A stretch of 42,572 nt of DNA from a virus. Lineage: Duplodnaviria; Caudoviricetes. The notes beneath the pieces were generated by a model. It did not search any database and had not been told where the DNA came from. It worked only from the letters and a program-made list of their open reading frames with translations. Shown here piece by piece: positions 3,101 to 27,658 of the stretch. The DNA lies in the IMG/VR virus record IMGVR_UViG_3300037424_000238, positions 1 to 42,572 of that record; one strand, written 5' to 3'. Within the stretch, counting starts at the first letter, position 1. Every line of letters starts with the position of its first letter. Made by a program: the position numbers and the translations under genes.

Positions 3101-6100
3101 CTTCGCCGAGGGTTCGCGGTTGATTCAGCTTTTCGAGAAAGCGGATTTAAGCTCTTTTCTTCATGAGAGCGGTCACGCCTGGCTTGAGGAACTGAAGGAA
3201 GACGCCGCCCGCGACAACGCCCCCACGCAGATACGGGAAGACTGGAACACTATCGCCGACTGGCTGGAGATCGACCCCAACCAAGAGATCCCCGTCGTCG
3301 CCCATGAGACCTTCGCCCGGGGAATCGAAGCTTATATCCGGGAAGGTAAGGCACCCTCTACGGACTTGGCGCCGGTCTTCCAGCGTTTCAAGGCGTGGCT
3401 GCTGCGAATTTACAAGAGCCTCGACCTCAACGTCACCCTGACCAAGGACGTGCGTCAGGTCATGAACAGATTGTTGGCTACCGACGAGGAGATCCGGCAG
3501 ACCGAACAGATGCAGATCTTCGCGCCCCTGTTTGCGACGGCTATCGAAGCGGGGATGAGCGAAACGGAGTTTGCCGCCTACCGCAAGATTGCCGAGGCTG
3601 CCCATGAGGAGGCGACCAGAGACCTGCAGCAGAAGCTCATGGACGAGCTTTCCCGCGAGCAAAAGGCCTGGTGGAAGGATGAGCGGGCCAAGGTGCGCCA
3701 GACCGTCGAGGCCGAGGCGAAGAAGAATCCCGTCTATCAGGCATTCCAGGTCCTGACAAAAGGGGAGGACTTCGAGGGGAACGCCGTCGAAGGATTCAAG
3801 ATCGCCAAGGCGGACTTGGTGAAGATGTACGGGGAACCCTTTGTCAAAAGACTTCCGAGAGCCTTCCAGCGGGTCTATACCAAAAAAGGGGGCTTGCACC
3901 CCGACGAGGTGGCCGAGGTCTTCGGGTTCTCCTCCGGTGACGAGATGGTGCAGGCCATGGTCAACACGTCGCCGATGAAGCAAGCCGTCGAGGCCGAGAC
4001 CGACGTTCGGATGCGCGAGACCTACGGCGACATGATGCTGGACGGCTCCATTGCCGATGAGGCGCTGAACTCCGTGCACTCCGACCAGCGGGGGAAGGTC
4101 CTGCAAGCCGAGCTCCGAGCCCTGCGCAAGAAGCAGCGCGAAGTTTCCCCCTTCGTCAAGGCCGCTCAAAAAGAACAGGCCGAGACCGAAAAGCAGGGGC
4201 GCAAGGAGATTGACGCCATTCCCCCGCTTCAAGCCTTCCGCCTCTTCGCCGCCCAGATGATCGGGGCCAAGGCGCTCGGGGATGTCCGCCCTGACCTCTA
4301 CCTGAAGGCCGAGCAGAAGGCTGGACGACTCGCCTTCGAAGCCGCAACGAAGAAGGACTACATCACCGCCGCCGAAGAGAAGCGCAAGCAGCTGTTGAAC
4401 CACTTCCTTTTCATCGAGGCGCGAGCGGCCCGGGAGGAAGCGGAGAAGATCGTTGACTACGCCAAGCGCCTGGAGAAACCCGCCTCTCAGTCGAGGATCG
4501 GCAAGGCCGGCGGGGACTATCTCGACCAGATCAACGGCATTCTCGAGCGCTACGAGTTCAAGGCGGTCTCCCGGGGCACGTTGGAGAAGCGCCAGAGTCT
4601 TCTGGAATGGGCTCGCCAGCAGGAGGATATGGGACTGGAGGCGGCCATCCCCCAGTCTGTTCTGGATGAGATCGGCCGGCGCAACTACAAGACCCTTTCC
4701 ATTGACGAATTGAGGGCCGTTCGAGATGCGATGAAGAACATCGAGCACCTGGCGCGGGAAGTCAACTATCTGCGCATTGAAGGGGAAGAGATCGAACTTG
4801 CCGAGGCCGTCCGCGAGCTCTCGGATTCGGCCGAAGAACACTTCGACACCAAGCGCCTGCCTATCGACCAGGAGACGCGATCCTGGCTGGATAAACAGGG
4901 GGAGAAGATTTCCCGACTCGACGCCTCTCTGCTCAAGGCCGAACAGCTCATTGAATGGCTCGACGGCGGGAAGGTGAACGGACCCTGGAACAGGATGATT
5001 TTCGAGCCTTTGGCCAAGGCGCAGGCTCGGGAGTTCGACCTGACCAAAGAGTACACACAGAAGACGGCGGAGATCTTTCGGGAGTACGGCAGCAAAAAGG
5101 GCAACGTTCTCCTGGAGAAGATCTACATCCCCTCTCTCGGGGAATCCCTGACCCGGCAGGCCATCCTTGCCGCCGCCCTCAATACCGGCAACGCCTCCAA
5201 CTATGACAAACTCCTGAAGGGCCGGGAGTGGACACCTGCAGTCATCGAGGATATCCTCTCCCGCATGGACGGGACCGACTGGGCCTTCATCCAGAGCGTA
5301 TGGGACACCATCGAGTCTCTGTGGCCGGAGATCGCCGCCATGGAAAAGCGACTCTCCGGGGTCACCCCTCCGAAGATAGAGGCGCGGGAGATCACGAACC
5401 AGTACGGCACCTTCAATGGGGGCTACTTCCCCGTGGTCTACGATCCCCTCTACAGCGCCGCCGGGGAGAAGCATGCCGACGCCCGGGCGGATAAACTCTT
5501 CGACTCCAACTATGTGCGGGCCACCACCGAGAAGGGGCACACCAAGGCGAGGCTCGAGCAGGCCGCCTATCCGATCCTGCTGAACCTCGGAGTCATTCCC
5601 CAACACCTGGCCCAGGTGATTCACGACCTCACGCACCGCGAGGCGATCATCACGGGCAACAGACTTTTGACGAAAACCAAGGGCACCCTGAACGCCACCG
5701 CCGGACCGGCCTATCACCGGATGCTGACCCAGTGGCTTGCCAGCGTGGCCAACGACCGCAACATCGACCAGACGGGGAATCAGTTCTGGACCAACTTCTT
5801 CACCTCCCTGAGGATCAACTCGACCATCGTTGGCATGGGACTTCGAGTGACCACCATGTTCACTCAGATTGCCGGCCTCTCCCAGTCCCTCGATATCGTC
5901 AAGGGGCGCTACCTGGCCAAAGGTTTGGCGCAGTTCACCCGGCACCCCTTCGAGTCCAGGGCATGGGTCAATGCGAAGTCCGGAGAGATGCGCCACCGCT
6001 CCAACGCCCTCGACCGCGATATCCGCGACGGGGTGAGAAAGCTCATGGGCAAGAAGGGCGCTGTTGCCTGGATTCAGTCCAAAAGCTTCGGCGGGATTGC

Positions 6101-18847: not shown

Positions 18848-19924
18848 ATGAACACCGATATTCGAATCAGCGTTTCATTTCAAAGGCACCCCAAAGCCAT
18901 AAAGCTGAGGCGTAAGCTCGGCGCCGAAGGTCTTTTGAGTCTGGTAGAGTTGTGGTGTTGGTCGGCTCAATACCGATCTGGTGGCATTTTGGACGACATG
19001 AACGAGGAAGACATCGCCCTCGCTGCCCAGTGGGGTAACGACCCTTCAACGTTCGTTACAACGCTCGTTGAACTGCGTTGGCTGGACGTTGCAGAAAACG
19101 GCGTTTATTCCCTGCATGACTGGGTCGATCACAACGGTTATGCCTCGTCGGCGTCGGACAGGTCGGACAAATCGCGTCTTTCTCGAATGGCAAAAACACA
19201 CACATCCATCTATCGTGACCTCAAAGGACGGGGTGTCGAAGGCGTATCTGCTGAAGAATACAGGCGGTTAACGAACGTTCAACGAATCGTTAACGATTCG
19301 TTAACCGAACGTACAAGCCCATCTCCATCTCCATCTCCATCTCCATCTCCATCTCCATCTCCATCTCTAAAGAAAGAACACCCTTTGTCGGCCTGCGCCG
19401 ACGTTGCCCTCGAAATCATCCTCAAAGACGAATCTCTACATCCGATTACCGAAGCCGATATAGACGACTGGATCAAACTCTTCCCTCGAGTTGATGTAAT
19501 CGACACTCTGTCTAGAATCAAAAAACGGTGTCTGGCACACCCAGGAAGCCGCAGGAGCGACGAAAGCATTCGTCCCCATATCATGGGGTGCCTTGACATG
19601 ATGAACAAGCGTATAGAGGTTTTTGAGCGGTTATGGAAACGCTATCCAGCCAAGGATGGAAAGAAGGCGGCAGAGAAACATTTTCGGGCCACTGTCCACA
19701 CCGAGGATGATCTGGCCAACATCCACCAAGCGCTCGACAACTACCTCGACCTGCTGGCCCTCAATCCTGACCGGCAGCCGAAAAACGGCTCGACATGGTT
19801 CAACAACTGGCAGGACTGGGTTGATTATGACGTTGCCGCTCATAAGCCGAAAACCGAGCACGGCAAGACTATTTCTCAACACCACGGGGCCGCCTACAGG
19901 ATGATGGAGGACCTGAATGGATAA
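18848..19924 (+). CDS. Replication initiator (lambda O-like)
   Basis: Winged-helix-like N-terminus (HPK...YSLHDW), (SP)n linker, and C-terminal FERLWKRYPAKDGK...STWFN. Lies directly before DnaB. Confidence 0.75.
   Translation: MNTDIRISVSFQRHPKAIKLRRKLGAEGLLSLVELWCWSAQYRSGGILDDMNEEDIALAAQWGNDPSTFVTTLVELRWLDVAENGVYSLHDWVDHNGYASSASDRSDKSRLSRMAKTHTSIYRDLKGRGVEGVSAEEYRRLTNVQRIVNDSLTERTSPSPSPSPSPSPSPSPSLKKEHPLSACADVALEIILKDESLHPITEADIDDWIKLFPRVDVIDTLSRIKKRCLAHPGSRRSDESIRPHIMGCLDMMNKRIEVFERLWKRYPAKDGKKAAEKHFRATVHTEDDLANIHQALDNYLDLLALNPDRQPKNGSTWFNNWQDWVDYDVAAHKPKTEHGKTISQHHGAAYRMMEDLNG
19265..19312. promoter_or_regulatory. Candidate replication origin (iterons and palindrome) inside the initiator gene
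   Basis: Four GTTAACGA-like units, a perfect 22-bp palindrome AACGAATCGTTAACGATTCGTT (19281-19302), and outer inverted repeats CGGTTAACGAA/TTCGTTAACCG. Confidence 0.6.
19319..19366 (+). repeat. (CCATCT)8 tandem repeat encoding a Pro-Ser linker
   Basis: Eight exact copies. Confidence 0.95.
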
Positions 19925-21209
19925 CGAAAAGGGAGCGCTAGGTTGTTGCTTTCTCGAACCGGAGGCCGTCGACCTCGCTCTGTCGCTGATGTCGGCAAAA
20001 GATTTCGCCCTTCCACCTCACCGGGTCATTTTCGAGGAAATGGTGCAGATGGCCGAGAACCAGATGGAGATCAATCTGATCACCCTGACTACCGAACTGG
20101 AAAAAAAGGGAGTTCTTTGGAGTGTTGGAGGCTCGGCCTACCTGTCTGAACTGCTCGAATACACCCCGGCCTATACCGAGGGGGTTCTGCGCTACTATGT
20201 CGCCCAAATTATCGAGCAGTCCACGAAGCGCAAGCTCAGGAGTATCGCCGAGGCGATCAATCGCAACGTGGACACCATGAGCGCGGCGGAGTTGCGGGCC
20301 AAGGTCGAGGAGCATATTTTCAGATTGGACACCGGTAAAAAAGAAGGGCCGAAACACGTCAAGGACACGCTTAAAGATGTCTACAAGCAGATGGAATACA
20401 GTCACGCAAACAAGGGAGTTATCACTGGGTTGGAAACTGGGATTTTAAGACTCGATGCCGCGATGTGCGGGCTCAACAAATCGGATTTGACGATTATAGC
20501 CGGTCGCCCCGCCATGGGGAAATCGGCCCTGGCCGGGAACATCGTCGAACATGTGAGCGTCAAGAACGGAAAACAGAGCCTCATTTTTTCCTGCGAAATG
20601 TCGACGGAACAATGGGTCAAGCGGATACTCTACTCCCTCGCCCGGGTCGACGGGGCAAGAGCGCGGATCGGCAATTTCAATCAGGGGGATTGGCCGAAAC
20701 TGAGCAATGGAATGGGGCAACTGAGGGAGTCGGGCGTATGGATCGATGATACCCCGGGAATCAACATTTCCGAACTCAGAGCCAGGGCCAGGACGCTGCA
20801 CCGGAAGTCAGGACTCGAACTTGTCGTGGTAGACTACCTGCAGCTCCTCACGGGTAACGGAGACAGCAGGCAGCAGGAAATCGGCTCCATTTCCCGTGGA
20901 CTTAAGGGGATGGCGAAGGAACTGAACATCCCGGTCATTGCCCTGTCGCAGCTCAACAGGAAACTGGAAGAGAGGGTGAATAAGCGTCCGACCATGAGCG
21001 ACCTGAGAGAGTCAGGGGATATCGAACAGGATGCCGACAACATTCTTTTTCTCTACCGGGATTGTGTTTATAACCCGCAGGCACCCGAAGGAGAAGCTGA
21101 AATAATCATAGGCAAGCAGCGCAATGGACCAACGGGAACCGTCCCAGCAACCTGGATCGGAGGATTTTCCCGCTTTGAAAACAGAGAGGAACGCTACGAT
21201 GAGCGATAA
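19917..21209 (+). CDS. dnaB: Replicative DNA helicase
   Basis: AGRPAMGKS, VDYLQL, ALSQLNR, DLRESGDIEQDAD, KQRNGPTG. Confidence 0.96.
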   Translation: MDNEKGALGCCFLEPEAVDLALSLMSAKDFALPPHRVIFEEMVQMAENQMEINLITLTTELEKKGVLWSVGGSAYLSELLEYTPAYTEGVLRYYVAQIIEQSTKRKLRSIAEAINRNVDTMSAAELRAKVEEHIFRLDTGKKEGPKHVKDTLKDVYKQMEYSHANKGVITGLETGILRLDAAMCGLNKSDLTIIAGRPAMGKSALAGNIVEHVSVKNGKQSLIFSCEMSTEQWVKRILYSLARVDGARARIGNFNQGDWPKLSNGMGQLRESGVWIDDTPGINISELRARARTLHRKSGLELVVVDYLQLLTGNGDSRQQEIGSISRGLKGMAKELNIPVIALSQLNRKLEERVNKRPTMSDLRESGDIEQDADNILFLYRDCVYNPQAPEGEAEIIIGKQRNGPTGTVPATWIGGFSRFENREERYDER

Positions 21210-21516
21210 TGATTTTTTGACGCTACAAAGGGACTATGCCGAACTCGAACTGGCGACATTAAAAGGAGGATCGGGTAAATTTCAAACGAAAAACGGAGAA
21301 GAGGCCGTCCAGGGCGAAGACGGAGAATGGTATCAGCCAACGGTAAATCCCTTCGGCCACGGCTGTTGTGATTGCGGACTTTTTCATCAGGTGGAGATCG
21401 CCCTGATTGACGAGGAAAAGAATCAAATTCCATTCCCCGAGGGAACGGCGGTGGCTCTACGCTTCACCAGGGATGAAATCGAGACCAGGAGATTGAGGGA
21501 GCATCGTGGGAAATAA
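21199..21516 (+). CDS. Hypothetical protein with a CCDCGLxH motif; its stop codon forms the distal integron boundary
   Basis: GEWYQP...GCCDCGLFH; SD GAGG; overlaps the end of dnaB. Confidence 0.65.
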   Translation: MSDNDFLTLQRDYAELELATLKGGSGKFQTKNGEEAVQGEDGEWYQPTVNPFGHGCCDCGLFHQVEIALIDEEKNQIPFPEGTAVALRFTRDEIETRRLREHRGK

Positions 21517-21595
21517 CGGTTGAAGTAACCGGCGGCGTCGTGCCGCCACTATGGAGCACTCGTGGTGACCCGTCCGGTTCACTGATTGGTTCGTT
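21511..21595 (-). other. attC: attC site 1
   Basis: Minus strand reads AACGAAC-CAATC-AGTGAACC-GGACGG...CCGCC-GGTTACT-TCAACC-GTTATTT. Spacers are 5/6 nt and the extra bases lie on the R''-L'' arm. Confidence 0.88.
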
Positions 21596-21641
21596 TGCAC
21601 CAATACCCACGAGTTCGCGCTTTTACAAACTGGATGTGACC

Positions 21642-22469
21642 ATGAGAGTGCTAGACCTGTTCAGCGGGATCGGAGGTTTCAGTTTAGGGCTGGAACGGGC
21701 AGGAATGGAGACGGTGGCATTCTGCGAGATTGACCCGTTCTGCCGACAAGTGCTGCGGAAGCATTGGCCCAACGTGCCGATCTTCGAGGATGTGCGGGAA
21801 TTGGGAAGGGAGAATATAAGTGAATCAGTTGACCTTATATGTGGAGGATACCCGTGCCAGCCTTTTAGCAATGCCGGGCACCAGCGAGGCGCGGAAGATG
21901 ACCGTCATCTCTGGCCGCAAATGTACCGCATTATTGGAGATTTCAGGCCGCGATGGGTCATTGCCGAGAATGTTGCTGGGCACATCGGCTTGGGCCTCGA
22001 TGAGGTGCTTTCTGACCTGGAAGCCGCGAACTACACCTGGTGGGCGTTTGTTATTCCAGCTTGTGCCGTCGATGCCCCTCATAGACGAGATCGAGTCTGG
22101 ATTATTGCCCACGATAACGAGGACCGACGCGAACGGAAGAACGTACCAGTACAGCAGGGGGGACAAGGAAAAGCCAGTTTTGAGCCTGCTTGGCAAGGCT
22201 CGGCTGCTGCCGACCCCGAGGGCTTCGGACGGCATGAAGCACAAACTCCGGACCCACTTGCCAGAGGATCACAACTACCGGGGGCGGCTGGAGGATTTAG
22301 TGGCTGCTCTGGCGGAAGCACCTGGCTACCTGAACCCGCAATTCGTAGAGTGGTTGATGGGCTTTCCGGTTGGATGGAGCGCGCCATCGGAGCACTCGGA
22401 AACGCCGTAGTTTCACAGATACCGGAGCTGATCGGGCGGGCGATTATGGAAGTTGAGCGCGACCCCTGA
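21642..22469 (+). CDS. Cassette gene A: C5-cytosine DNA methyltransferase, alpha-like chain (motifs I-VIII and X)
   Basis: DLFSGIGG, GGYPCQPFS, ENV, HRRDRVW, LGNAVV. Confidence 0.9.
   Translation: MRVLDLFSGIGGFSLGLERAGMETVAFCEIDPFCRQVLRKHWPNVPIFEDVRELGRENISESVDLICGGYPCQPFSNAGHQRGAEDDRHLWPQMYRIIGDFRPRWVIAENVAGHIGLGLDEVLSDLEAANYTWWAFVIPACAVDAPHRRDRVWIIAHDNEDRRERKNVPVQQGGQGKASFEPAWQGSAAADPEGFGRHEAQTPDPLARGSQLPGAAGGFSGCSGGSTWLPEPAIRRVVDGLSGWMERAIGALGNAVVSQIPELIGRAIMEVERDP
21820..22410 (+). CDS. Nested alternative-frame ORF: beta-like chain carrying the motif IX region of the C5 MTase
   Basis: Lies wholly inside gene A in a different frame. LLPTPRASD...LNPQFVEWLMGFPVGW. SD-like GGGAG before GTG 21820. 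Confidence 0.65.
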   Translation: MNQLTLYVEDTRASLLAMPGTSEARKMTVISGRKCTALLEISGRDGSLPRMLLGTSAWASMRCFLTWKPRTTPGGRLLFQLVPSMPLIDEIESGLLPTITRTDANGRTYQYSRGDKEKPVLSLLGKARLLPTPRASDGMKHKLRTHLPEDHNYRGRLEDLVAALAEAPGYLNPQFVEWLMGFPVGWSAPSEHSETP

Positions 22470-22483
22470 GTGGGATTGGTGCA

Positions 22484-22587
22484 AACGAACGGATAGCAAT
22501 GAGCGGCTGCGCTCAGAGATTGGAGGACAAATGACGGATTCGAGAAGCACAGAGAGTGAACAGTCCAGCTCAATTGCGGGGTTATGC
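22484..22587 (-). other. attC: attC site 2
   Basis: + strand AACGAAC...CAATGAGCGGCTG pairs with CAGTCCAGCTCAATTG...GTTATGC, with the bulges on the right arm. Confidence 0.8.
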
Positions 22588-22767
22588 GCTGATCCGTCTG
22601 CCCCAATTGTAGTCTGTATTGAGTGTGGAAAGGATGTTTATACCTGTGAAAAGAGCGAGGCCGAAAATGGTGATTATCGATGTCCAGTACATCCCGCTGG
22701 GATACAGTTGATAGACGATAGTTGGGTTTGTTCAAACGATTGCTGGGAAAAAGTTGTTGACGCATAA
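22531..22767 (+). CDS. Cassette gene B: small Cys-rich protein that starts inside attC2
   Basis: SD GGAGG and ATG lie in the attC loop. CIEC...C..H...CSNDC. Stop TAA at the crossover. Confidence 0.6.
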   Translation: MTDSRSTESEQSSSIAGLCADPSAPIVVCIECGKDVYTCEKSEAENGDYRCPVHPAGIQLIDDSWVCSNDCWEKVVDA

Positions 22768-22850
22768 CGGCCACTGATAACCGGTGGCGGCGGACAGAAC
22801 GGGCCTTGACCACTGCCGCTTGCTCCATCCGGTTGATCAGATTGTTAGAT
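22762..22850 (-). other. attC: attC site 3
   Basis: Minus strand reads ATCTAAC-AATCT-GATCAACC-GGATGG...CCACC-GGTTATC-AGTGGCC-GTTATGC. Confidence 0.88.
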
Positions 22851-22896
22851 TTTAAACCAGCGCTGGCCGAAGGCCATTGCCTTAAAGGAGTAGAAC

Positions 22897-23517
22897 TTGA
22901 AAGTTTTAAATTTATATGCAGGCATTGGAGGAAACCGAAAGGACTGGACTGGGTGCGAGGTCACAGCGGTTGAATTTGACCCGCTGATCGCGGCAGTCTA
23001 TTCGGAGCGCTACCCTCAGGATACGGTGGTAGTGGGGGACGCGCTGGCATATCTGGAACAGCACTACGCTGAGTTTGATTTCATTTGGGCATCTCCGCCC
23101 TGCCCAAGTCACGGGCAATACCGGCACAATGTCGGGGTTATCGGTAAAGGATTTGCCCCCATTCTGCCGGATATGTCGCTGTATTCTGCAATCATCTTTT
23201 TGCAGACGTATTACAAGGGGAAATGGTGCGTTGAAAATGTGCGCCCGTATTACACCCCCCTTGTTGCGCCAGCGTTTGAGCTCCACCGGCATTTGTTCTG
23301 GGCGAATTTTACAGCAGGAAAGCGTGAATTTAAACCGGCAGAAATACGCACCAGAAATAAGATTTCGGACTTTGAAGGTTTTGCGGAAGTCGCGGCAAGC
23401 AAGATCGAGAATAAAAGGCAGGTTCTCCGCAACCAGGTAGACCCAGATCTAGGGAAACACATCTTCGACGCCGCAATGCTGGAGCGGTCAGAGGTCAGCA
23501 CCTTTGCGCCGGTTTAA
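22897..23517 (+). CDS. Cassette gene C: short C5-MTase-like protein
   Basis: SD AAGGAG with TTG start. LNLYAGIGG, WASPPC and VENV motifs. Confidence 0.8.
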   Translation: MKVLNLYAGIGGNRKDWTGCEVTAVEFDPLIAAVYSERYPQDTVVVGDALAYLEQHYAEFDFIWASPPCPSHGQYRHNVGVIGKGFAPILPDMSLYSAIIFLQTYYKGKWCVENVRPYYTPLVAPAFELHRHLFWANFTAGKREFKPAEIRTRNKISDFEGFAEVAASKIENKRQVLRNQVDPDLGKHIFDAAMLERSEVSTFAPV

Positions 23518-23518
23518 A

Positions 23519-23620
23519 ATCTAACGACCTGAATAAGCGGCGGCCCGCTGACGGTTGCGAACCGCTGAGGTAAACGAGAAGCAGCATGTGGCAACCGTCC
23601 GCTTTATTTTATGGTTAGAG
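23519..23620 (-). other. attC: attC site 4
   Basis: Minus strand reads CTCTAAC-CATAA-AATAAAGC-GGACGG...CCGCC-GCTTATT-CAGGTC-GTTAGAT. Confidence 0.88.
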
Positions 23621-23631
23621 GAGGTCCCGCA

Positions 23632-23817
23632 ATGTTTGAAATCTGGCTGAGAACCGTTTGTTTCCAAGCCCCGACGAAGGAAGCCTACGACTTGGCAAAA
23701 TGCGCGTGGGAAGAAGCTACAAAGGCCGAGCGCGAGGCTTGCGCCAGAACCTGCGAGGGCATCGGGAAGGAAATCGTTTGTCCCGAAGAGTGCGCCGAGG
23801 CGATCCGATCACGCTAA
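23632..23817 (+). CDS. Cassette gene D: hypothetical protein with an EREACA...CAEAIR phage motif
   Basis: SD GAGGAGG overlaps the attC core; stop at the crossover. Confidence 0.7.
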   Translation: MFEIWLRTVCFQAPTKEAYDLAKCAWEEATKAEREACARTCEGIGKEIVCPEECAEAIRSR

Positions 23818-23916
23818 CGCCCCGATCAGCGCACGGCGACGGGCCGGGCGAGGATCGACAAGATTTTAACGGGAAGCACTGCCGCCAATTCCGTTCGCTG
23901 AATTGGATGGTTATCT
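23812..23916 (-). other. attC: attC site 5
   Basis: CGCTAAC...GATCAGCGCACGG pairs with CCGTTCGCTGAATT...GTTATCT. Near-identical to attC7. Confidence 0.85.
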
Positions 23917-23933
23917 GTGGAGGTCGGAAAAGG

Positions 23934-24116
23934 ATGAACTACATCATTGCATTTGCCATATGCCTTATCGGAACCGTGCTGACCGCGCTGACCGGAAAAG
24001 ACACTTATTGGATGATGGTAAGTGATGGAAACGTAGCTTTGGCCCTGTTTATTGCTTGGTATCTTGACAAGGGCCGGGCAAAGGGAATCAACATAAATGT
24101 CAACGTGAGCAGATAA
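23934..24116 (+). CDS. Cassette gene E: small membrane protein with two hydrophobic segments
   Basis: SD GGAGG; YIIAFAICLIGTVLTAL and VALALFIAWYL; stop at the crossover. Confidence 0.65.
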   Translation: MNYIIAFAICLIGTVLTALTGKDTYWMMVSDGNVALALFIAWYLDKGRAKGININVNVSR

Positions 24117-24217
24117 CGGTTACCGATCAGCGCACGGCGACGGGCCGTGTGAGGATCAGCGAGATTTTAACGAGGAGCAGTCAAGCCAATTCCGTTCGCT
24201 GAATTGGATGGTTAGGA
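24111..24217 (-). other. attC: attC site 6
   Basis: Same family as attC5/7, with identical arms and a diverged loop. Confidence 0.85.
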
Positions 24218-24225
24218 GTTTACCG

Positions 24226-24462
24226 ATGGAAATTGAAGAGTTTGTTGACAAATTGCAGGAGTGGCATGGGGATAAGGTGGCCCAACTGCGCCAGATCACC
24301 GAAAATAGAGACGCCACCATCCAGCTCAGAGATATCACACTGGAACCCGGTAGTGATATAGCCGCTGCTTTCCGTGCGGGAGTGGCAGTCTCGCTGGAGA
24401 TTCTGGGTAAATTGCCTTTTAGTGCCTCGCATGACGACGATATTGAAGACGAGAACTCCTAA
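24226..24462 (+). CDS. Cassette gene F: hypothetical protein
   Basis: SD AGGAG lies within the attC core GTTAGGAG; stop at the crossover. Confidence 0.7.
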   Translation: MEIEEFVDKLQEWHGDKVAQLRQITENRDATIQLRDITLEPGSDIAAAFRAGVAVSLEILGKLPFSASHDDDIEDENS

Positions 24463-24561
24463 CGCCCCGATCAGCGCACGGCGACGGGCCGGGCGAGGAT
24501 CGACAAGATTTTAACGGGAAGCACAGCCGCCAATTCCGTTCGCTGAATTGGATGGTTAAAC
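24457..24561 (-). other. attC: attC site 7
   Basis: 24463-24554 matches 23818-23909 with one mismatch. Confidence 0.85.
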
Positions 24562-24581
24562 CCCTTATTTGGAGCAAGGAA

Positions 24582-24788
24582 ATGACACCCAAAGAAATTG
24601 AATCGGCTAGAAAAAAGGGGCGGCTTTGTTATCGACCCAAAATCAACGAGGTGGAAGGGCGGAAGTTTTTTAAGACCAGCGATGGCGTTGAATACGAGAT
24701 CAAGAACGGCACCGCCCAGGCAGTAATACCCAGGCAGAAGTTGTCAAAAAAAGACCGCAGGAAGATGAGACTGGCTATGGGGGTTTAA
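24582..24788 (+). CDS. Cassette gene G: small basic protein
   Basis: SD GGAG; K/R-rich; stop at the crossover. Confidence 0.65.
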   Translation: MTPKEIESARKKGRLCYRPKINEVEGRKFFKTSDGVEYEIKNGTAQAVIPRQKLSKKDRRKMRLAMGV

Positions 24789-24887
24789 CGATCAGAGATA
24801 AGGGGCTGGCGCAGAATGGCTGCGTATTGCTGACCTTATCGAGAACCGCCCATGTTTAACCAGTCCCTCTTAATTGACGGGTTAGGG
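24783..24887 (-). other. attC: attC site 8
   Basis: GTTTAAC...ATAAGGGGCTGG pairs with CCAGTCCCTCTTAAT...GTTAGGG. Confidence 0.78.
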
Positions 24888-24913
24888 CGCATTTTCAGGG
24901 AGGTACAAACATT

Positions 24914-25213
24914 ATGGAAAAGTCGCTTGGCAACACCGATGTAAACGGCGCAAGAAAGAATATTAGGGACATCGTAGTTTTTGGCAACGGAGATATGTTT
25001 AAGTTGCTTTCCAAGGCATCCAACCAGGAAGAGGGATGGATGAAAAGTACGAAGGCGATGGAAGTTGTCGGCGGATGTGTTGTCCAGGTCACGACCCATC
25101 AACGTAATCATGATGGCACAAACTCCGTGGCTGAAGCCCTGACCTATGTTCCCGGTGTAAAAATTGCCGACGATGCTGAGTTCCGTGGACGTAGGCTGGT
25201 TCCAATCTGTTGA
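24914..25213 (+). CDS. Cassette gene H: hypothetical phage protein
   Basis: SD GGGAGG; KASNQEEGWMKSTKAMEV..GCVVQVTT. Confidence 0.75.
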   Translation: MEKSLGNTDVNGARKNIRDIVVFGNGDMFKLLSKASNQEEGWMKSTKAMEVVGGCVVQVTTHQRNHDGTNSVAEALTYVPGVKIADDAEFRGRRLVPIC

Positions 25214-25221
25214 ACAATGGT

Positions 25222-25249
25222 GGCGCAGGGTCAATGCTGACCCTGCGCC
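25222..25249. other. Perfect 12-bp hairpin abutting and overlapping the attC9 core
   Basis: GGCGCAGGGTCA-ATGC-TGACCCTGCGCC. Confidence 0.8.
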
Positions 25250-25334
25250 CTAACGGTTACTGATAACCGGTGGCGACGGATGGAACGGCTTGATCACTGC
25301 TGATTATTCCATCCGGTTGATTAGATTGTTATGA
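25248..25334 (-). other. attC: attC site 9 (attI-proximal)
   Basis: CCCTAAC-GGTTAC-TGATAACCGGTGG...CCATCCGGTTGATTA-GATT-GTTATGA. Same family as attC3. Confidence 0.88.
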
Positions 25335-25358
25335 GGCCCCTATTTCCGAGGCAGCGGC

Positions 25359-26180
25359 ATGAAACGAATTATCAGGGTTTTCCCAAGACGCACCGCCGCC
25401 ACGCCAGATGATGAACTGGTGAGAGTCGCAGCCGGACCGGGCCTTTTTGACGAGGCCGACGAGGTGCATGTGTCGGTGACGTTTTCGTGGGACCTCCCCC
25501 TGGCCGAGAAGTTGGCGAAAGATTGGGCGCCGGTTGCCCCGGTGCGGATCGGCGGACCGGCCACGGGCGAAGCAGGGGGCGAGTTTATCCCTGGCATGTA
25601 CGTCAAGCGCGGATACGCTCTGACATCGAGGGGTTGCCCGAACATCTGCTGGTTTTGTTCTGTGCCAAAAAGGGAAGGCCCGTTACGGGAACTGACCATC
25701 ACCGACGGATACAACCTGTTGGACGACAACCTGCTTGCCTGCTCTGATGACCATATAATGCGGGTGTTTGCGATGCTGGCCGCAGGGAAAAAGCAGTACC
25801 GCAAACCGGTGGAGTTCACCGGGGGTCTCGAAGCGAAGCGCCTGCAATCGTGGCACGTCGAAGCCCTGCGGGAGTTAAGGCCGAAGCAGATGTTTTTTGC
25901 GTATGACACGCCCGACGATCTGGAGCCGCTGCAACGGGCAGGCCGGATGCTTCTTGATGCTGGATGGACAACCGCCAGCCACACCCTGAGAGCATACGTG
26001 CTGTGCGGATACCCGAAAGACAGCTTCGACGCCGCTGAACGGCGGATGAGAGAAACGCAGGAGGCAGGATTTATGCCGATGGCGATGCTGTATCGAGACA
26101 AAAGCGGGAAGAGAACAACAGAATGGATGAGGTGGCAGAAGCAATGGGCGCGTCCGGTACTCATTGCCAGGGCCTCATAA
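25359..26180 (+). CDS. Cassette gene I: radical-SAM-like protein
   Basis: TSRGCPNICWFC (CxxxCxxC), LLDDNLLA, FAYD, YVLCGY. SD GAGG; stop at the crossover. Confidence 0.8.
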   Translation: MKRIIRVFPRRTAATPDDELVRVAAGPGLFDEADEVHVSVTFSWDLPLAEKLAKDWAPVAPVRIGGPATGEAGGEFIPGMYVKRGYALTSRGCPNICWFCSVPKREGPLRELTITDGYNLLDDNLLACSDDHIMRVFAMLAAGKKQYRKPVEFTGGLEAKRLQSWHVEALRELRPKQMFFAYDTPDDLEPLQRAGRMLLDAGWTTASHTLRAYVLCGYPKDSFDAAERRMRETQEAGFMPMAMLYRDKSGKRTTEWMRWQKQWARPVLIARAS

Positions 26181-26230
26181 CCATAATTACCCCGCCGACC
26201 CAGCGGCATAGCACACACCGAAAGGAGGAC
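26175..26230 (-). other. Putative attI site
   Basis: Minus strand ...GGGTAATTATG-GTTATGA is a single GTT core with no attC hairpin, immediately next to the intI start. Confidence 0.6.
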
Positions 26231-26235
26231 AACCC

Positions 26236-26768
26236 ATGAAAAACAGCGAAATCATCGGCAGCTCATCGTCCGGTGCGGCAAGGGTGACAAGGATCGCGTC
26301 ACCTGCCTACCCGGGTCCATCGTTCTGGCTTTACAACAGCACCTCGCCACCGTTCGCCAGATCCACGTACGCGACCAAGCCGCCGGCATCGGCTGCAGCC
26401 TGCCCGAAGCTCTGGTTCGCAAGTATCCCCAGGCCCCGCACCAATGGGGCTGGCAGTATGTTTTCCCCGCCGCGGCCCCTACTGACTGGACCCGCGAGGG
26501 CTCGCCGGGGGCGCTGCGTCGTCGCCACCTCCACCCGTCGGCTCTACAGAAAGCCGTCAAATCCGCCGTCCGCCGCTCAGGCATCGCCACTCCCGGCGGC
26601 TGTCACACATTCCGTCACTCCTTCGCCACCCATCTCCTCGAGAATGGCACCGACATCCGCACACTGCAGGAACTCCTCGGTCACGCCGACGTGCGCACCA
26701 CGCAAATCTACACCCATGTCACCGGCCACGGTTCCGGAATCCGCTCCCCCCTCGACCTGGTGGCCTGA
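26236..26768 (+). pseudogene. intI: Integron integrase, internally deleted and frameshifted
   Basis: SD AAGGAGG and ATG (MKNSEII) are joined out of frame to 26256-26768. That frame reads [16 protein letters not shown]...[24 protein letters not shown] (IntI-specific insertion)...[40 protein letters not shown]...SPLD. The N-terminal domain and box I Arg are absent. Confidence 0.93.
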
Positions 26769-26816
26769 TGACCAATCCGATTAAACCTTTTATGCAAACT
26801 TGTCAGGGAGGAACAG

Positions 26817-27065
26817 ATGGAAAACGCCGAGATTCTGAGGGAGTTTTATGGTCGTCTGCACCGGGAGTTCGATCACCTGGCCCCGGTGATCATCGAGGAT
26901 TACGACTGCGGCCAGGTGGTGCGGCACGAGTTTACGCTGGCCCGATTCGGACGGATTGACAGCTACGATGTTTCGGCCGATGGGGTGTCCCTCGGCCGTA
27001 TGGGGTGGGCGCTGGCTCTTGTTTTTGTCCGCAAGGCGTTTATCAGGACAGGGAGGTTTGGTTAA
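26817..27065 (+). CDS. Hypothetical protein
   Basis: SD GGGAGG. Confidence 0.6.
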   Translation: MENAEILREFYGRLHREFDHLAPVIIEDYDCGQVVRHEFTLARFGRIDSYDVSADGVSLGRMGWALALVFVRKAFIRTGRFG

Positions 27066-27165
27066 TTGTTCCTCTATTTCGGGGAACATCTCGGGATGAA
27101 ATAATTTCTCGTTTGTGTTCTTATTGACCCCATGTATTCAGCGAGGTCAGACATAAGCGGAAGTC

Positions 27166-27203
27166 AAAGGGAAGCGGCCTTTACGGGGGTCGCTTTCTCT
27201 TTT
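27166..27203 (+). terminator. Terminator-like hairpin just upstream of terS
   Basis: AGCGGCCT...GGGGTCGCT stem with G-U pairs, followed by TTCTCTTTT. Confidence 0.45.
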
Positions 27204-27214
27204 GGGGGTGCGTG

Positions 27215-27658
27215 ATGGCTGCCCCTAAGGGAAACTGTTTCTGGGAAGCGAGAAGCTCCCACGGGCGCAAGCCGATCTTTGCCAACGCTGAGGATTTGTG
27301 GGATGCCTGTGCTCAATATTTTATCTGGGTAGAGGATAATCCTCTCTGGGAGGCCAAGCTCACCTCCTACCAGGGAGAGAACAAAATTGAGAAGCTGCCG
27401 AAGATGCGGGCCATGACCATCGGCGGGTTGTGCATTTTCCTTGATATAGACCGGAAGACCTGGGCCGACTACGCAAAACGCGAAGATTTTATTCCCGTCT
27501 GTATGCGAGCAGAGGAAATCATCCGAGACCAGAAGTTCTCCGGCGCCGCAGCCGAACTGCTCAACCCCTCCATTATCGCCCGTGATTTGGGCCTGGCCGA
27601 CAAGCGCGAGCACACCGGCAAACTCACCCTGGAAGACCTGCTCACCGAGGGGGACTGA
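27215..27658 (+). CDS. terS: Terminase small subunit (P22 gp3-like)
   Basis: [18 protein letters not shown]...[10 protein letters not shown]...[22 protein letters not shown]. Confidence 0.93.

Follow-up and report, generated by a model that had tools for sequence, protein, structure and literature searches.

A probable phage-resident integron with cassette genes on the attC bottom strand

The phage DNA analyzed here (42.6 kb; the whole stretch of 42,572 nucleotides is referred to as the window) harbors nine attC sites, an attI-like site and an integron integrase gene. By layout, the locus is a complete integron with a pseudogenised intI. We hold with considerable confidence that this integron is resident in the phage and carries its genes on the attC bottom strand, with IntI likely recombining the sites at AA|C and read-through likely providing expression. 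At the level of sequence, the analysis establishes the sites with their polarity and bounds, cassette movement between phages, insertion at attI, membership of the recombinase in the IntI family and the deletion in its gene. Integrons are regarded as bacterial devices in which strand selectivity places the genes behind Pc, and the reversed gene polarity is the main point of novelty; a literature search found no account of reversed-gene phage integrons. The features of the array are as follows.

21202..21516, + strand: CCDC-motif gene, left array boundary; the first crossover follows directly on its stop codon
21517..22489, + strand: cassette 1; attC1 21515-21591 (covariance score 38.1 bits; closure 12 nt), then a C5 DNA methyltransferase gene at 21642-22469 (TIGR00675, above cut-off) and an overlapping frame at 21820-22410 (phrog_1008 MTase, E 1e-31)
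22490..22767, + strand: cassette 2; attC2 22488-22583 (15.2 bits, E 0.15; closure 5 nt); 78-aa Cys-rich ORF, likely start 22531, within the attC2 hairpin
22768..23524, + strand: cassette 3; attC3 22766-22846 (29.4 bits; closure 12 nt); 206-aa C5 MTase-like gene at 22897-23517 (PF00145, E 2e-6, confined to residues 1-78)
23525..23817, + strand: cassette 4; attC4 23523-23616 (34.7 bits; closure only 2 nt past the core); 61-aa ORF
23818..24116, + strand: cassette 5; attC5 23816-23912 (26.9 bits; closure 5 nt); 60-aa hydrophobic ORF
24117..24462, + strand: cassette 6; attC6 24115-24213 (11.6 bits, E 1.1; closure 7 nt); 78-aa ORF (phrog_12368, E 5e-19)
24463..24788, + strand: cassette 7; attC7 24461-24557 (28.8 bits); 68-aa ORF
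24789..25253, + strand: cassette 8; attC8 24787-24883 (25.6 bits); 99-aa ORF
25254..26180, + strand: cassette 9; attC9 25252-25330 (21.6 bits; closure 9 nt); 273-aa radical SAM-like gene (phrog_9298, E 6e-19)
26179..26235, - strand: attI-like site and intI leader, with an AAC core (GTT on the minus strand), a conserved motif and a ribosome-binding site
26236..26768, + strand: pseudogene of an integron integrase, 5' codons fused, with a frame break, to the 170 codons of the C-terminal part

A sequence-only reading of this DNA had placed nine hairpins here, and all of its coordinates held: the AAC triplets of sites 1-9 start at 21515, 22488, 22766, 23523, 23816, 24115, 24461, 24787 and 25252, and the GTT triplets at 21589, 22581, 22844, 23614, 23910, 24211, 24555, 24881 and 25328. 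The lone core (26179-26181), 55 nt from the intI start codon at 26236, was likewise found as described, as was the cargo of two C5 MTase-like genes and a radical SAM gene. The hairpins had been called regularly spaced, which does not fit spacings of 278-973 nt, and the single gene assigned to every cassette was amended for cassette 1, with its two overlapping frames. The cassette bounds proposed in that reading imply reversed gene polarity, which it did not name. Upstream of the CCDC-motif gene, which had no family match in profile searches, no attC was detected by scan or covariance model.

Each window site follows the order AAC, 5-7 nt, 3 bp with one unpaired base on the 3' arm, 5 nt, GTT, so that R and L boxes, extrahelical base and 5-nt spacer are present with one polarity in 9/9 sites. 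This geometry is that of bacterial attC bottom strands taken from control loci, the control sites having been chosen by our own scanner and being mutually non-independent. A covariance model trained on 40 bacterial-type attC sites, none of them from the window, matched 9/9 window sites, all on the + strand, at 38.1-11.6 bits (seven at E<0.01), in support of the attC identity that had been proposed; elsewhere in the 42.6 kb it gave three further matches, at E 0.23-3.2. The initial strict scanner recovered only 3/9 window sites, with a mean of 0.095 in shuffled sequence, and an Rfam search of 21000-27300 returned no family at E<=1. In the minimum-energy DNA fold the R box is paired in site 4 only (1/9), and forcing this pairing costs 0.1-1.2 kcal/mol in sites 1-3 and 2.6-6.6 in sites 5-9, for which reason recombination may be poor at several sites. 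Unconstrained folding was discarded as a strand test, as it did not separate the strands.

The bounds at AA|C had been predicted and are supported by closure on circularization, by cassettes shared with loci L004 and L249 and by the comparison of L004 with L002. In closure, 67 nt pair with the flank of the next site versus 9 with the own flank, a value reached by 0/200,000 random assignments. Cassettes 7 and 8 are found again in the arrays of other phages, upstream hairpin included and bounded precisely at AA|C: cassette 7 matches L004 448-785 at 96.5% over 338 nt, where it lies at attI, and cassette 8 matches L249 751-1220 at 98.3% over 470 nt, among different neighbors. Cassettes are seen to travel whole, each delimited by the AAC crossover, and cassette content varies among relatives (L004, L249, L002 versus L004), as would be anticipated from the sequence-only reading.

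All nine cassette genes are encoded by the attC bottom strand and run in the same direction as intI and the operon of the phage; the canonical arrangement, in which the attC top strand encodes the genes and Pc drives them from the attI side, was found in the controls and not in the window. The polarity of the window rests on three observations: the unpaired base is on the 3' arm of the + strand in 9/9 sites; a complete hairpin stands ahead of gene 1 and none behind gene 9; and the upstream hairpin moves with gene 7 (L004) and gene 8 (L249). Flank closure was dropped as proof of polarity since both polarities predict it, and a longest-ORF orientation call, too noisy in GC-rich loci, was replaced. 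Using a polarity classifier that left over half of the viral cassettes uncalled and miscalled window cassette 2, we counted 51 reversed, 14 canonical and 75 uncalled cassettes in viral contigs. The bacterial genomes gave 1, 24 and 27 and the metagenome sample 0, 11 and 9, scans of 1/64 parts each that serve as controls and not as evidence of absence. The reversed layout accounts for 51/65 called cassettes in viral contigs versus 1/36 elsewhere. On the bottom strand, a ribosome-binding site with a start no more than 70 nt past the attC site occurred at 31/61 viral versus 0/51 control sites; a third test of polarity did not reach significance (12/61 versus 18/51, p 0.09). Array and operon are both on the opposite strand in L276.

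The recombinase at 26256-26768 had been assigned to IntI, and the family assignment stands, although the frame encodes only the C-terminal half and does not share the reading frame of its start codon. Its translation matches TIGR02249 positions 149-313 (208.8 bits, E 1e-61; below the 265 cut-off), and the IntI-specific insertion named earlier is present in the fragment. Compared with the intact relative L001 (395.6 bits on TIGR02249, over the cut-off; 15/15 aligned viral homologs also match), about 442 nt are missing, the N-terminal domain and the first catalytic Arg are gone and the frame is broken, so the window genome lacks an intact, catalytically complete integrase. A contig of run X5 shows the deletion junction again, its left side there being 17 nt long. 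No piece listed for run X1 covers 25275-26900, and that run speaks neither for nor against the deletion; joints between sites in these runs were left out of account, as their sides are short and repeats are involved. In integrase trees, the window integrase nests within the IntI clade with support 1.0, as had been claimed, and the enzyme family is one of ordinary integron descent. The nearest integrases form a 12-tip clade (support 1.0) of viral contigs only, on unrelated backbones. A single 51-tip viral clade was also considered and collapsed once 52 metagenome integrases were added, leaving just clades of 12 and 24 tips. Among close relatives, the sole named one is a protein of a Geopsychrobacter MAG (63%, on a 4.9-kb contig). 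Virus Rctr41k carries an IntI from a viral group; no attC was found in it by scanner or covariance model, and a literature search returned no paper on it.

The attI-like site is conserved, lying 55-58 nt ahead of intI; its spacing is retained in L001-L004, L007-L009 and L012, each time behind a different gene end. The near-identical viral platforms L002 and L004 share 80/80 nt left of the crossover and are 97% identical over 2.9 kb from attI onward. L004 holds 685 nt extra, located at attI and corresponding to two cassettes, namely cassette 7 and one 99.7% identical to an L245 cassette. Judged from these alignments, cassettes enter at attI between such platforms. Cassette 9 of the window adjoins attI and is therefore likely the newest.

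It is known that the attC bottom strand folds and is cleaved in the AAC triplet (Nivina 2016, PMC5027507). In the proposed mechanism, cassettes are ordered hairpin then gene along the direction of phage transcription, the integron integrase likely acts on the folded + strand at AA|C, and cassettes would be inserted at attI ahead of intI. Recombination would be performed by the phage-encoded IntI and not by host IntI alone, and the cargo is likely transcribed by read-through of the one-way phage operon instead of from Pc. The reversal would place intI and cargo on a single transcript, the newest cassette being the most distant from the promoter, and MTases and similar cargo may shield phage DNA against restriction. 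Scans gave promoters and terminators at chance level (10 vs 8.7 and 23 vs 21.8, respectively). A LexA-type box (CTG-N10-CAG) before intI was found in controls L241 and L242 and not in the window, L001 or L004, where the LexA motif of the host may differ. The locus had been described as a machine for shuffling: cassette mobility is borne out, but the window genome cannot shuffle unaided because its intI has an internal deletion, and its array may now be frozen or reliant on an integrase in trans.

That deletion, next to an intact array, is also what would be expected if the cassettes are real and moved by integrases of the host or of co-infecting phages, the phage intI being a dispensable passenger. 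Arrays without intI in the retrieved stretch (L245, L247, L249, L254 and L277), the presence of IntI in 45/401 genomes of one phylum and the recombination of phage attC sites by IntI1 (Qi 2023, PMC9892861) point the same way. We nevertheless consider it unlikely as a general account, as most integrases of the clade are full length, with catalytic motifs kept in 45/50 members by pattern search, and attI is conserved beside intI, with new cassettes exactly there in L004 versus L002; for the window genome, it is compatible with the phage-resident reading. Less probable still is that the hairpins are repeats or transcription signals aiding homologous recombination by Erf and exonuclease and not site-specific exchange. 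The phage does encode Erf-like and exonuclease genes, sites 5, 6 and 7 are near-identical repeats through which such recombination could move cassettes as well, sites 3 and 9 form another such family, and the L004 copy of attC7 is a mosaic of window sites 6 and 7. However, the points of exchange lie at AA|C where the two sites are unrelated, and also at attI, which has no hairpin in common with them; flank closure matches gene ends with their own hairpin, and the sites, which are matched by a bacterial attC model, precede a true IntI.

Capture of a whole host chromosomal integron has precedents (Qi 2023, PMC9892861; L240, L241 and L022), and the window sites resemble ordinary attC. Captured arrays, however, retain canonical gene polarity, whereas the window genes are reversed and belong to common phage families, mostly attC-free in viral loci: the cassette 8 family takes cassette form in 2/20 loci, and the cassette 9 family has attC matches at 8/80, all on the coding strand. 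The best chromosomal IntI among 401 genomes reaches only 55% identity to L001, compared with 64-77% for the close clade. Host capture is already largely refuted, and we regard it as the least credible of these accounts. The earlier view of a phage-native and not transduced system agrees with the viral nearest integrases, the phage-type cargo and a polarity opposite to that of bacterial arrays.

A widespread viral reversed version would combine the same recombination chemistry with another expression logic, and phages would gain site-specific swapping of accessory genes, such as methyltransferases. Such integrons may have been overlooked because detection tools do not report in-cassette gene polarity (IntegronFinder as described; Cury 2016, PMC4889954). 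More tentatively, phages may run an integron economy of their own, in which reversed cassettes arise de novo from phage genes, are traded between unrelated phages and are insulated by polarity. If so, host cassettes, often encoding anti-phage defense, would not be expressed on entering a phage array, nor would phage cassettes behind a host Pc. Cassette genesis has been called largely unknown (Loot 2017); the same gene families, free and in cassettes in phages, would offer a route to cassette origin, as genesis could be compared at the sequence level.

Integron parts in phages, as remarked in the sequence-only reading, have been published: Qi 2023 (PMC9892861) reported phage attC arrays (CALINs), MTase cargo and three complete integrons in temperate phages. 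The latter (checked: Va_90-11-286_p16, M16-3 and P1 L-II) are host-type captures with canonical polarity, and its main text describes no phage-specific integrase clade, reversed-gene rule or inter-phage cassette exchange. The DUF1874 motif (Weinberg 2017, PMC5737381), a structured element before consecutive genes proposed as an unusual attC, resembles the window array, but it is multistem and without an integrase. In inverted-integrase integrons (Treponema and others; Cury 2016, PMC4889954), intI and cassette genes share one direction, as in the window. There, however, intI is flipped ahead of a canonical array, as in L160 and L180 with their canonical genes, whereas in the window intI is where it normally lies, encoded by the bottom strand and transcribed after the array, and it is the genes within the cassettes that are inverted. 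With bacterial integrons (class 1; sedentary integrons of Vibrio, Xanthomonadales and Shewanella; PMC5027507, PMC4889954), the window shares the IntI insertion, attC geometry, attI beside the intI 5' end, bottom-strand AAC crossover, insertion at attI, array polarity relative to intI and one gene per cassette. It differs in that its genes lie on the bottom strand, co-directional with intI, making Pc-type expression impossible, in that the newest cassette is promoter-distal and no LexA-type box is seen, and in having phage accessory genes as cargo on a platform within phage operons.

Nine imperfect AAC...GTT hairpins, taken by an earlier sequence-only reading for the attC sites of a phage integron, are all present where that reading placed them (9/9), each starting with AAC and ending with GTT 75-97 nt later. 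In all nine the stem has 3 bp and the 3' arm a single unpaired base, and a spacer of 5 nt precedes the GTT.

21517-26180, + strand: array of nine hairpin-then-gene cassettes, attC sites 1-9
26179-26235, - strand: attI-like site and intI leader
26236-26768, + strand: intI

The recombinogenic bottom strand has AAC in R', cleavage between A and C and extrahelical bases near L'' (Nivina 2016, PMC5027507, available text). As this layout matches the AAC and the unpaired-base placement here, the + strand of the window is the attC bottom strand. A first scanner with fixed spacers recovered 3/9 sites; a second, tuned on the window's own geometry and therefore circular for the window, recovered 9/9 with no other match at score 9. 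As an independent check, a covariance model was built from 40 scanner-picked sites of bacterial-type arrays, leaving out the window and the reversed arrays. It matched all nine sites on the + strand, seven at a rough E<0.01, with three weak matches elsewhere in the window and none on the opposite strand at the nine site positions; the covariance-model check that the sequence-only reading proposed thus came out in its favor. The minimum-energy fold pairs the R box in site 4 only, and forcing this pairing in sites 5-9 costs 2.6-6.6 kcal/mol, which counts against strong site activity. The attC7 copy in comparison locus L004 (455-551) mixes parts of window sites 7 and 6, a mosaic that suggests exchange within attC families.

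All nine cassette genes lie on the attC bottom strand, the reverse of the canonical arrangement in bacterial integrons. Six stop codons coincide exactly with the crossover, and most genes are preceded by a purine-rich ribosome-binding site, which lies 15-53 nt past the hairpin. Polarity is read from the unpaired base, from the array ends (gene 1 has a complete hairpin in front of it, gene 9 a bare core behind it) and from relatives carrying the upstream hairpin. Bacterial-type controls (L022 and the annotated L240 and L241) match this arrangement of sites and intI but carry their genes on the opposite strand. In 164 integrase loci, the non-identical ones among 187, a classifier called 51 cassettes reversed and 14 canonical in viral contigs (75 uncalled), 1 and 24 in bacterial genomes (27 uncalled), and 0 and 7 in four GenBank loci (7 uncalled); on eight scored window cassettes it miscalled cassette 2 and left one uncalled. 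A 1-in-64 metagenome sample (52 integrases) gave 0 reversed, 11 canonical and 9 uncalled. Among covariance-model matches, a ribosome-binding site and start just behind the site accompanied 31/61 viral versus 0/51 control sites, and an ORF stopping at AA|C 34/61 versus 8/51; the mirror test for canonical stops (12/61 viral versus 18/51 control) was not significant, and the p-values overstate significance since the loci are related. In 44 viral intI loci, 61/61 matches fell on the intI strand. L276, with a DnaB of 82% identity, has its array in an opposite-facing erf/exonuclease/ninB operon and its sites are flipped too, so polarity follows transcription.

The bases that follow each GTT pair with those leading up to the next AAC, over 12, 5, 12, 2, 5, 7, 7, 8 and 9 nt, a total of 67 nt versus 9 for the own flank, matched by 0/200,000 random assignments. 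This closure marks circularisable units and says nothing on polarity. Block 24454-24791 recurs in L004 at 96.5% with its upstream hairpin, among other neighbors and directly at attI, and block 24786-25255 recurs in L249 at 98.3%. Contig pieces from sequencing runs X2-X4 stop at cassette bounds or close to them (22485, 22491, 22768, 22769, 24122, 24790 and 25255) and have loose ends at 21514, 22491, 24458 and 24785-24786, which is weaker evidence because assemblies break at repeats. Loci L002 and L004 are identical over 80 nt left of the attI point and 97% identical over 2.9 kb to its right; L004 carries 685 nt more, made up of cassette 7 and another cassette, which matches one in L245 at 99.7% identity. 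On this alignment the extra stretch is the footprint of an insertion at attI, and the two-cassette difference supplies the variable content among relatives that the sequence-only reading had suggested looking for.

Several smaller features were observed around the bounds. The last 39 nt of cassette 1 (22453-22491) recur at 90% at the end of an apparently different cassette in L008 (91-129), and this extended flank at the cassette end may be a module that is reused. Between its stop codon and the crossover, cassette 8 closes with a strong GC-rich hairpin (25217-25253), possibly a terminator or processing site. The same 9 nt precede the first attC in the window (21508-21516), L247 (about 4625-4635) and L253 (about 4917-4927), behind genes unrelated to each other, and may be what remains of one half of an ancestral attI.

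The 26256-26768 translation, read earlier as an IntI-type recombinase, does belong to the integron integrase family; it is only the C-terminal part of an internally deleted gene, matching the integrase model over positions 149-313 only. Viral relatives (12 best of 80 loci) are 64-82% identical over the fragment and have full genes of 321-331 aa. Because the first codons of these full-length genes match the ATG at 26236, we infer an internal deletion of about 442 nt that removed the N-terminal domain and first catalytic Arg and broke the frame. An X5 contig, from a second study, matches 26239-26895 with zero differences, with only 17 nt left of the deletion junction, short of the 31 nt that the tool requires; the deletion is probably real. 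Ahead of intI, 55-58 nt are conserved in L001-L004, L007-L009 and L012, and in each locus they start with AAC behind a different gene end.

In the IntI tree, where the sequence-only reading had wanted it placed, L001 is the sister of the fragment; the two fall in a clade of 12 tips (support 1.0), all from viral contigs, which is nested in a 24-tip viral-only clade (0.93). A single 51-tip viral IntI clade (0.90) dissolved once metagenome sequences were added. Since two further viral groups with reversed cassettes lie elsewhere in the tree (41 tips, 18 reversed and 2 canonical; L043/L049), the reversed layout may have originated, or spread, repeatedly. One viral subgroup (L032, L037-L042, L044-L047), also with reversed cassettes, has 5 inserted residues that separate the HxxR and GH motifs further. 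Virus Rctr41k (L239, KX853513) carries at 4680-5678 a gene annotated xerD that has the IntI insertion and groups with viral IntIs; no attC was detected near it.

The window spans an entire contig, and a 191-nt terminal repeat with 2 differences between copies indicates that the window is probably a complete circular phage genome. PHROGs matches, all on the + strand, include terminase, portal, capsid, tail, internal virion, Erf-like, exonuclease, NinB, replication initiator and DnaB genes, and the array sits between dnaB and terminase. The runs with at least one fifth of the stretch (X1-X5) are labeled sediment metagenome. The replication initiator gene contains a Ser-Pro hexamer repeat (19319-19369). 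The ORF after intI (26775-27065) is a chimera with its joint in an 11-nt shared stretch: its opening 26 codons come from a Mor-type activator gene, which L248 carries intact at 1865-2122 (Pfam Mor E 5e-12), and the remainder is the 3' part of the gene preceding Mor in L248 and in X2 and X6 contigs. The X5 contig diverges from the window at 26895; the chimera is either a natural rearrangement or a misjoin.

A host integron picked up by transduction would be the alternative origin. In the phylum to which two records titled Deltaproteobacteria belong, 45 of the 401 genomes covered have IntI, the best 55% identical to L001; nine GenBank phage records matched, none above 50%. The close IntI clade is all viral, the phages that carry it are unrelated in backbone (primase-type phages, a Mu-like transposable phage and the window's podovirus-like genome), and the cargo is phage-type, which upholds the earlier view of a phage-resident array. 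Cassette 1 has two overlapping frames, 21642-22469 (phrog_363) and 21820-22410 (phrog_1008, E 1e-31), both of methyltransferase families; the pair resembles two-subunit C5 methyltransferases with one alternative-frame subunit, such as M.EcoHK31I. The likely start codon (22531) and ribosome-binding site of cassette 2 lie inside its own attC loop. Cassette-8 homologues in 20 viral loci are in cassette form in 2 (one judged by eye) and without an adjoining site in 18; for cassette 9, among the best 80 of 162 loci, 8 had covariance-model matches, 20/20 on the coding strand.

In a one-way phage genome, flipped genes would allow cargo and intI to be read from upstream promoters as one transcript, and new cassettes would enter at the promoter-distal end. 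The window array would now be frozen or reliant on integrase in trans. Directly before the arrays of L247 (about 4390-4640) and L253 (about 4680-4930) lie a promoter-like stretch, in which an operator-like motif is repeated, and a regulator-like gene of 46 aa; the stretch faces into the array, in which no intI was seen, and is a candidate for the promoter that reads reversed cassettes from upstream. Each of the two pools, reversed and canonical, would be silent in the setting of the other; we speculate that such a barrier would be favored by the anti-phage cassettes that are reported in large number from host integrons (Darracq 2024, 10.1101/2024.07.02.601686).

No description of reversed-gene phage integrons was found in the literature searched, whose coverage omits most subscription journals, nor in the available portions of Cury 2016, Loot 2017, IntegronFinder 2.0, Weinberg 2017, PMC8876359, PMC13323075, PMC13676570, PMC11054128 and some preprints. 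The window array is a genuine integron, of a reversed-gene type adapted to phages, and the integrase of this copy is dead. For attC hairpins of the bottom strand, recombination at AA|C is established integron biochemistry (Nivina 2016, PMC5027507). Finally, the accessible text of Qi 2023 (PMC9892861) reports 3 complete integrons, 1 In0 and 17 CALINs in 10,705 phage genomes, with methyltransferase cargo in phage arrays and 5/6 phage sites recombined by IntI1.
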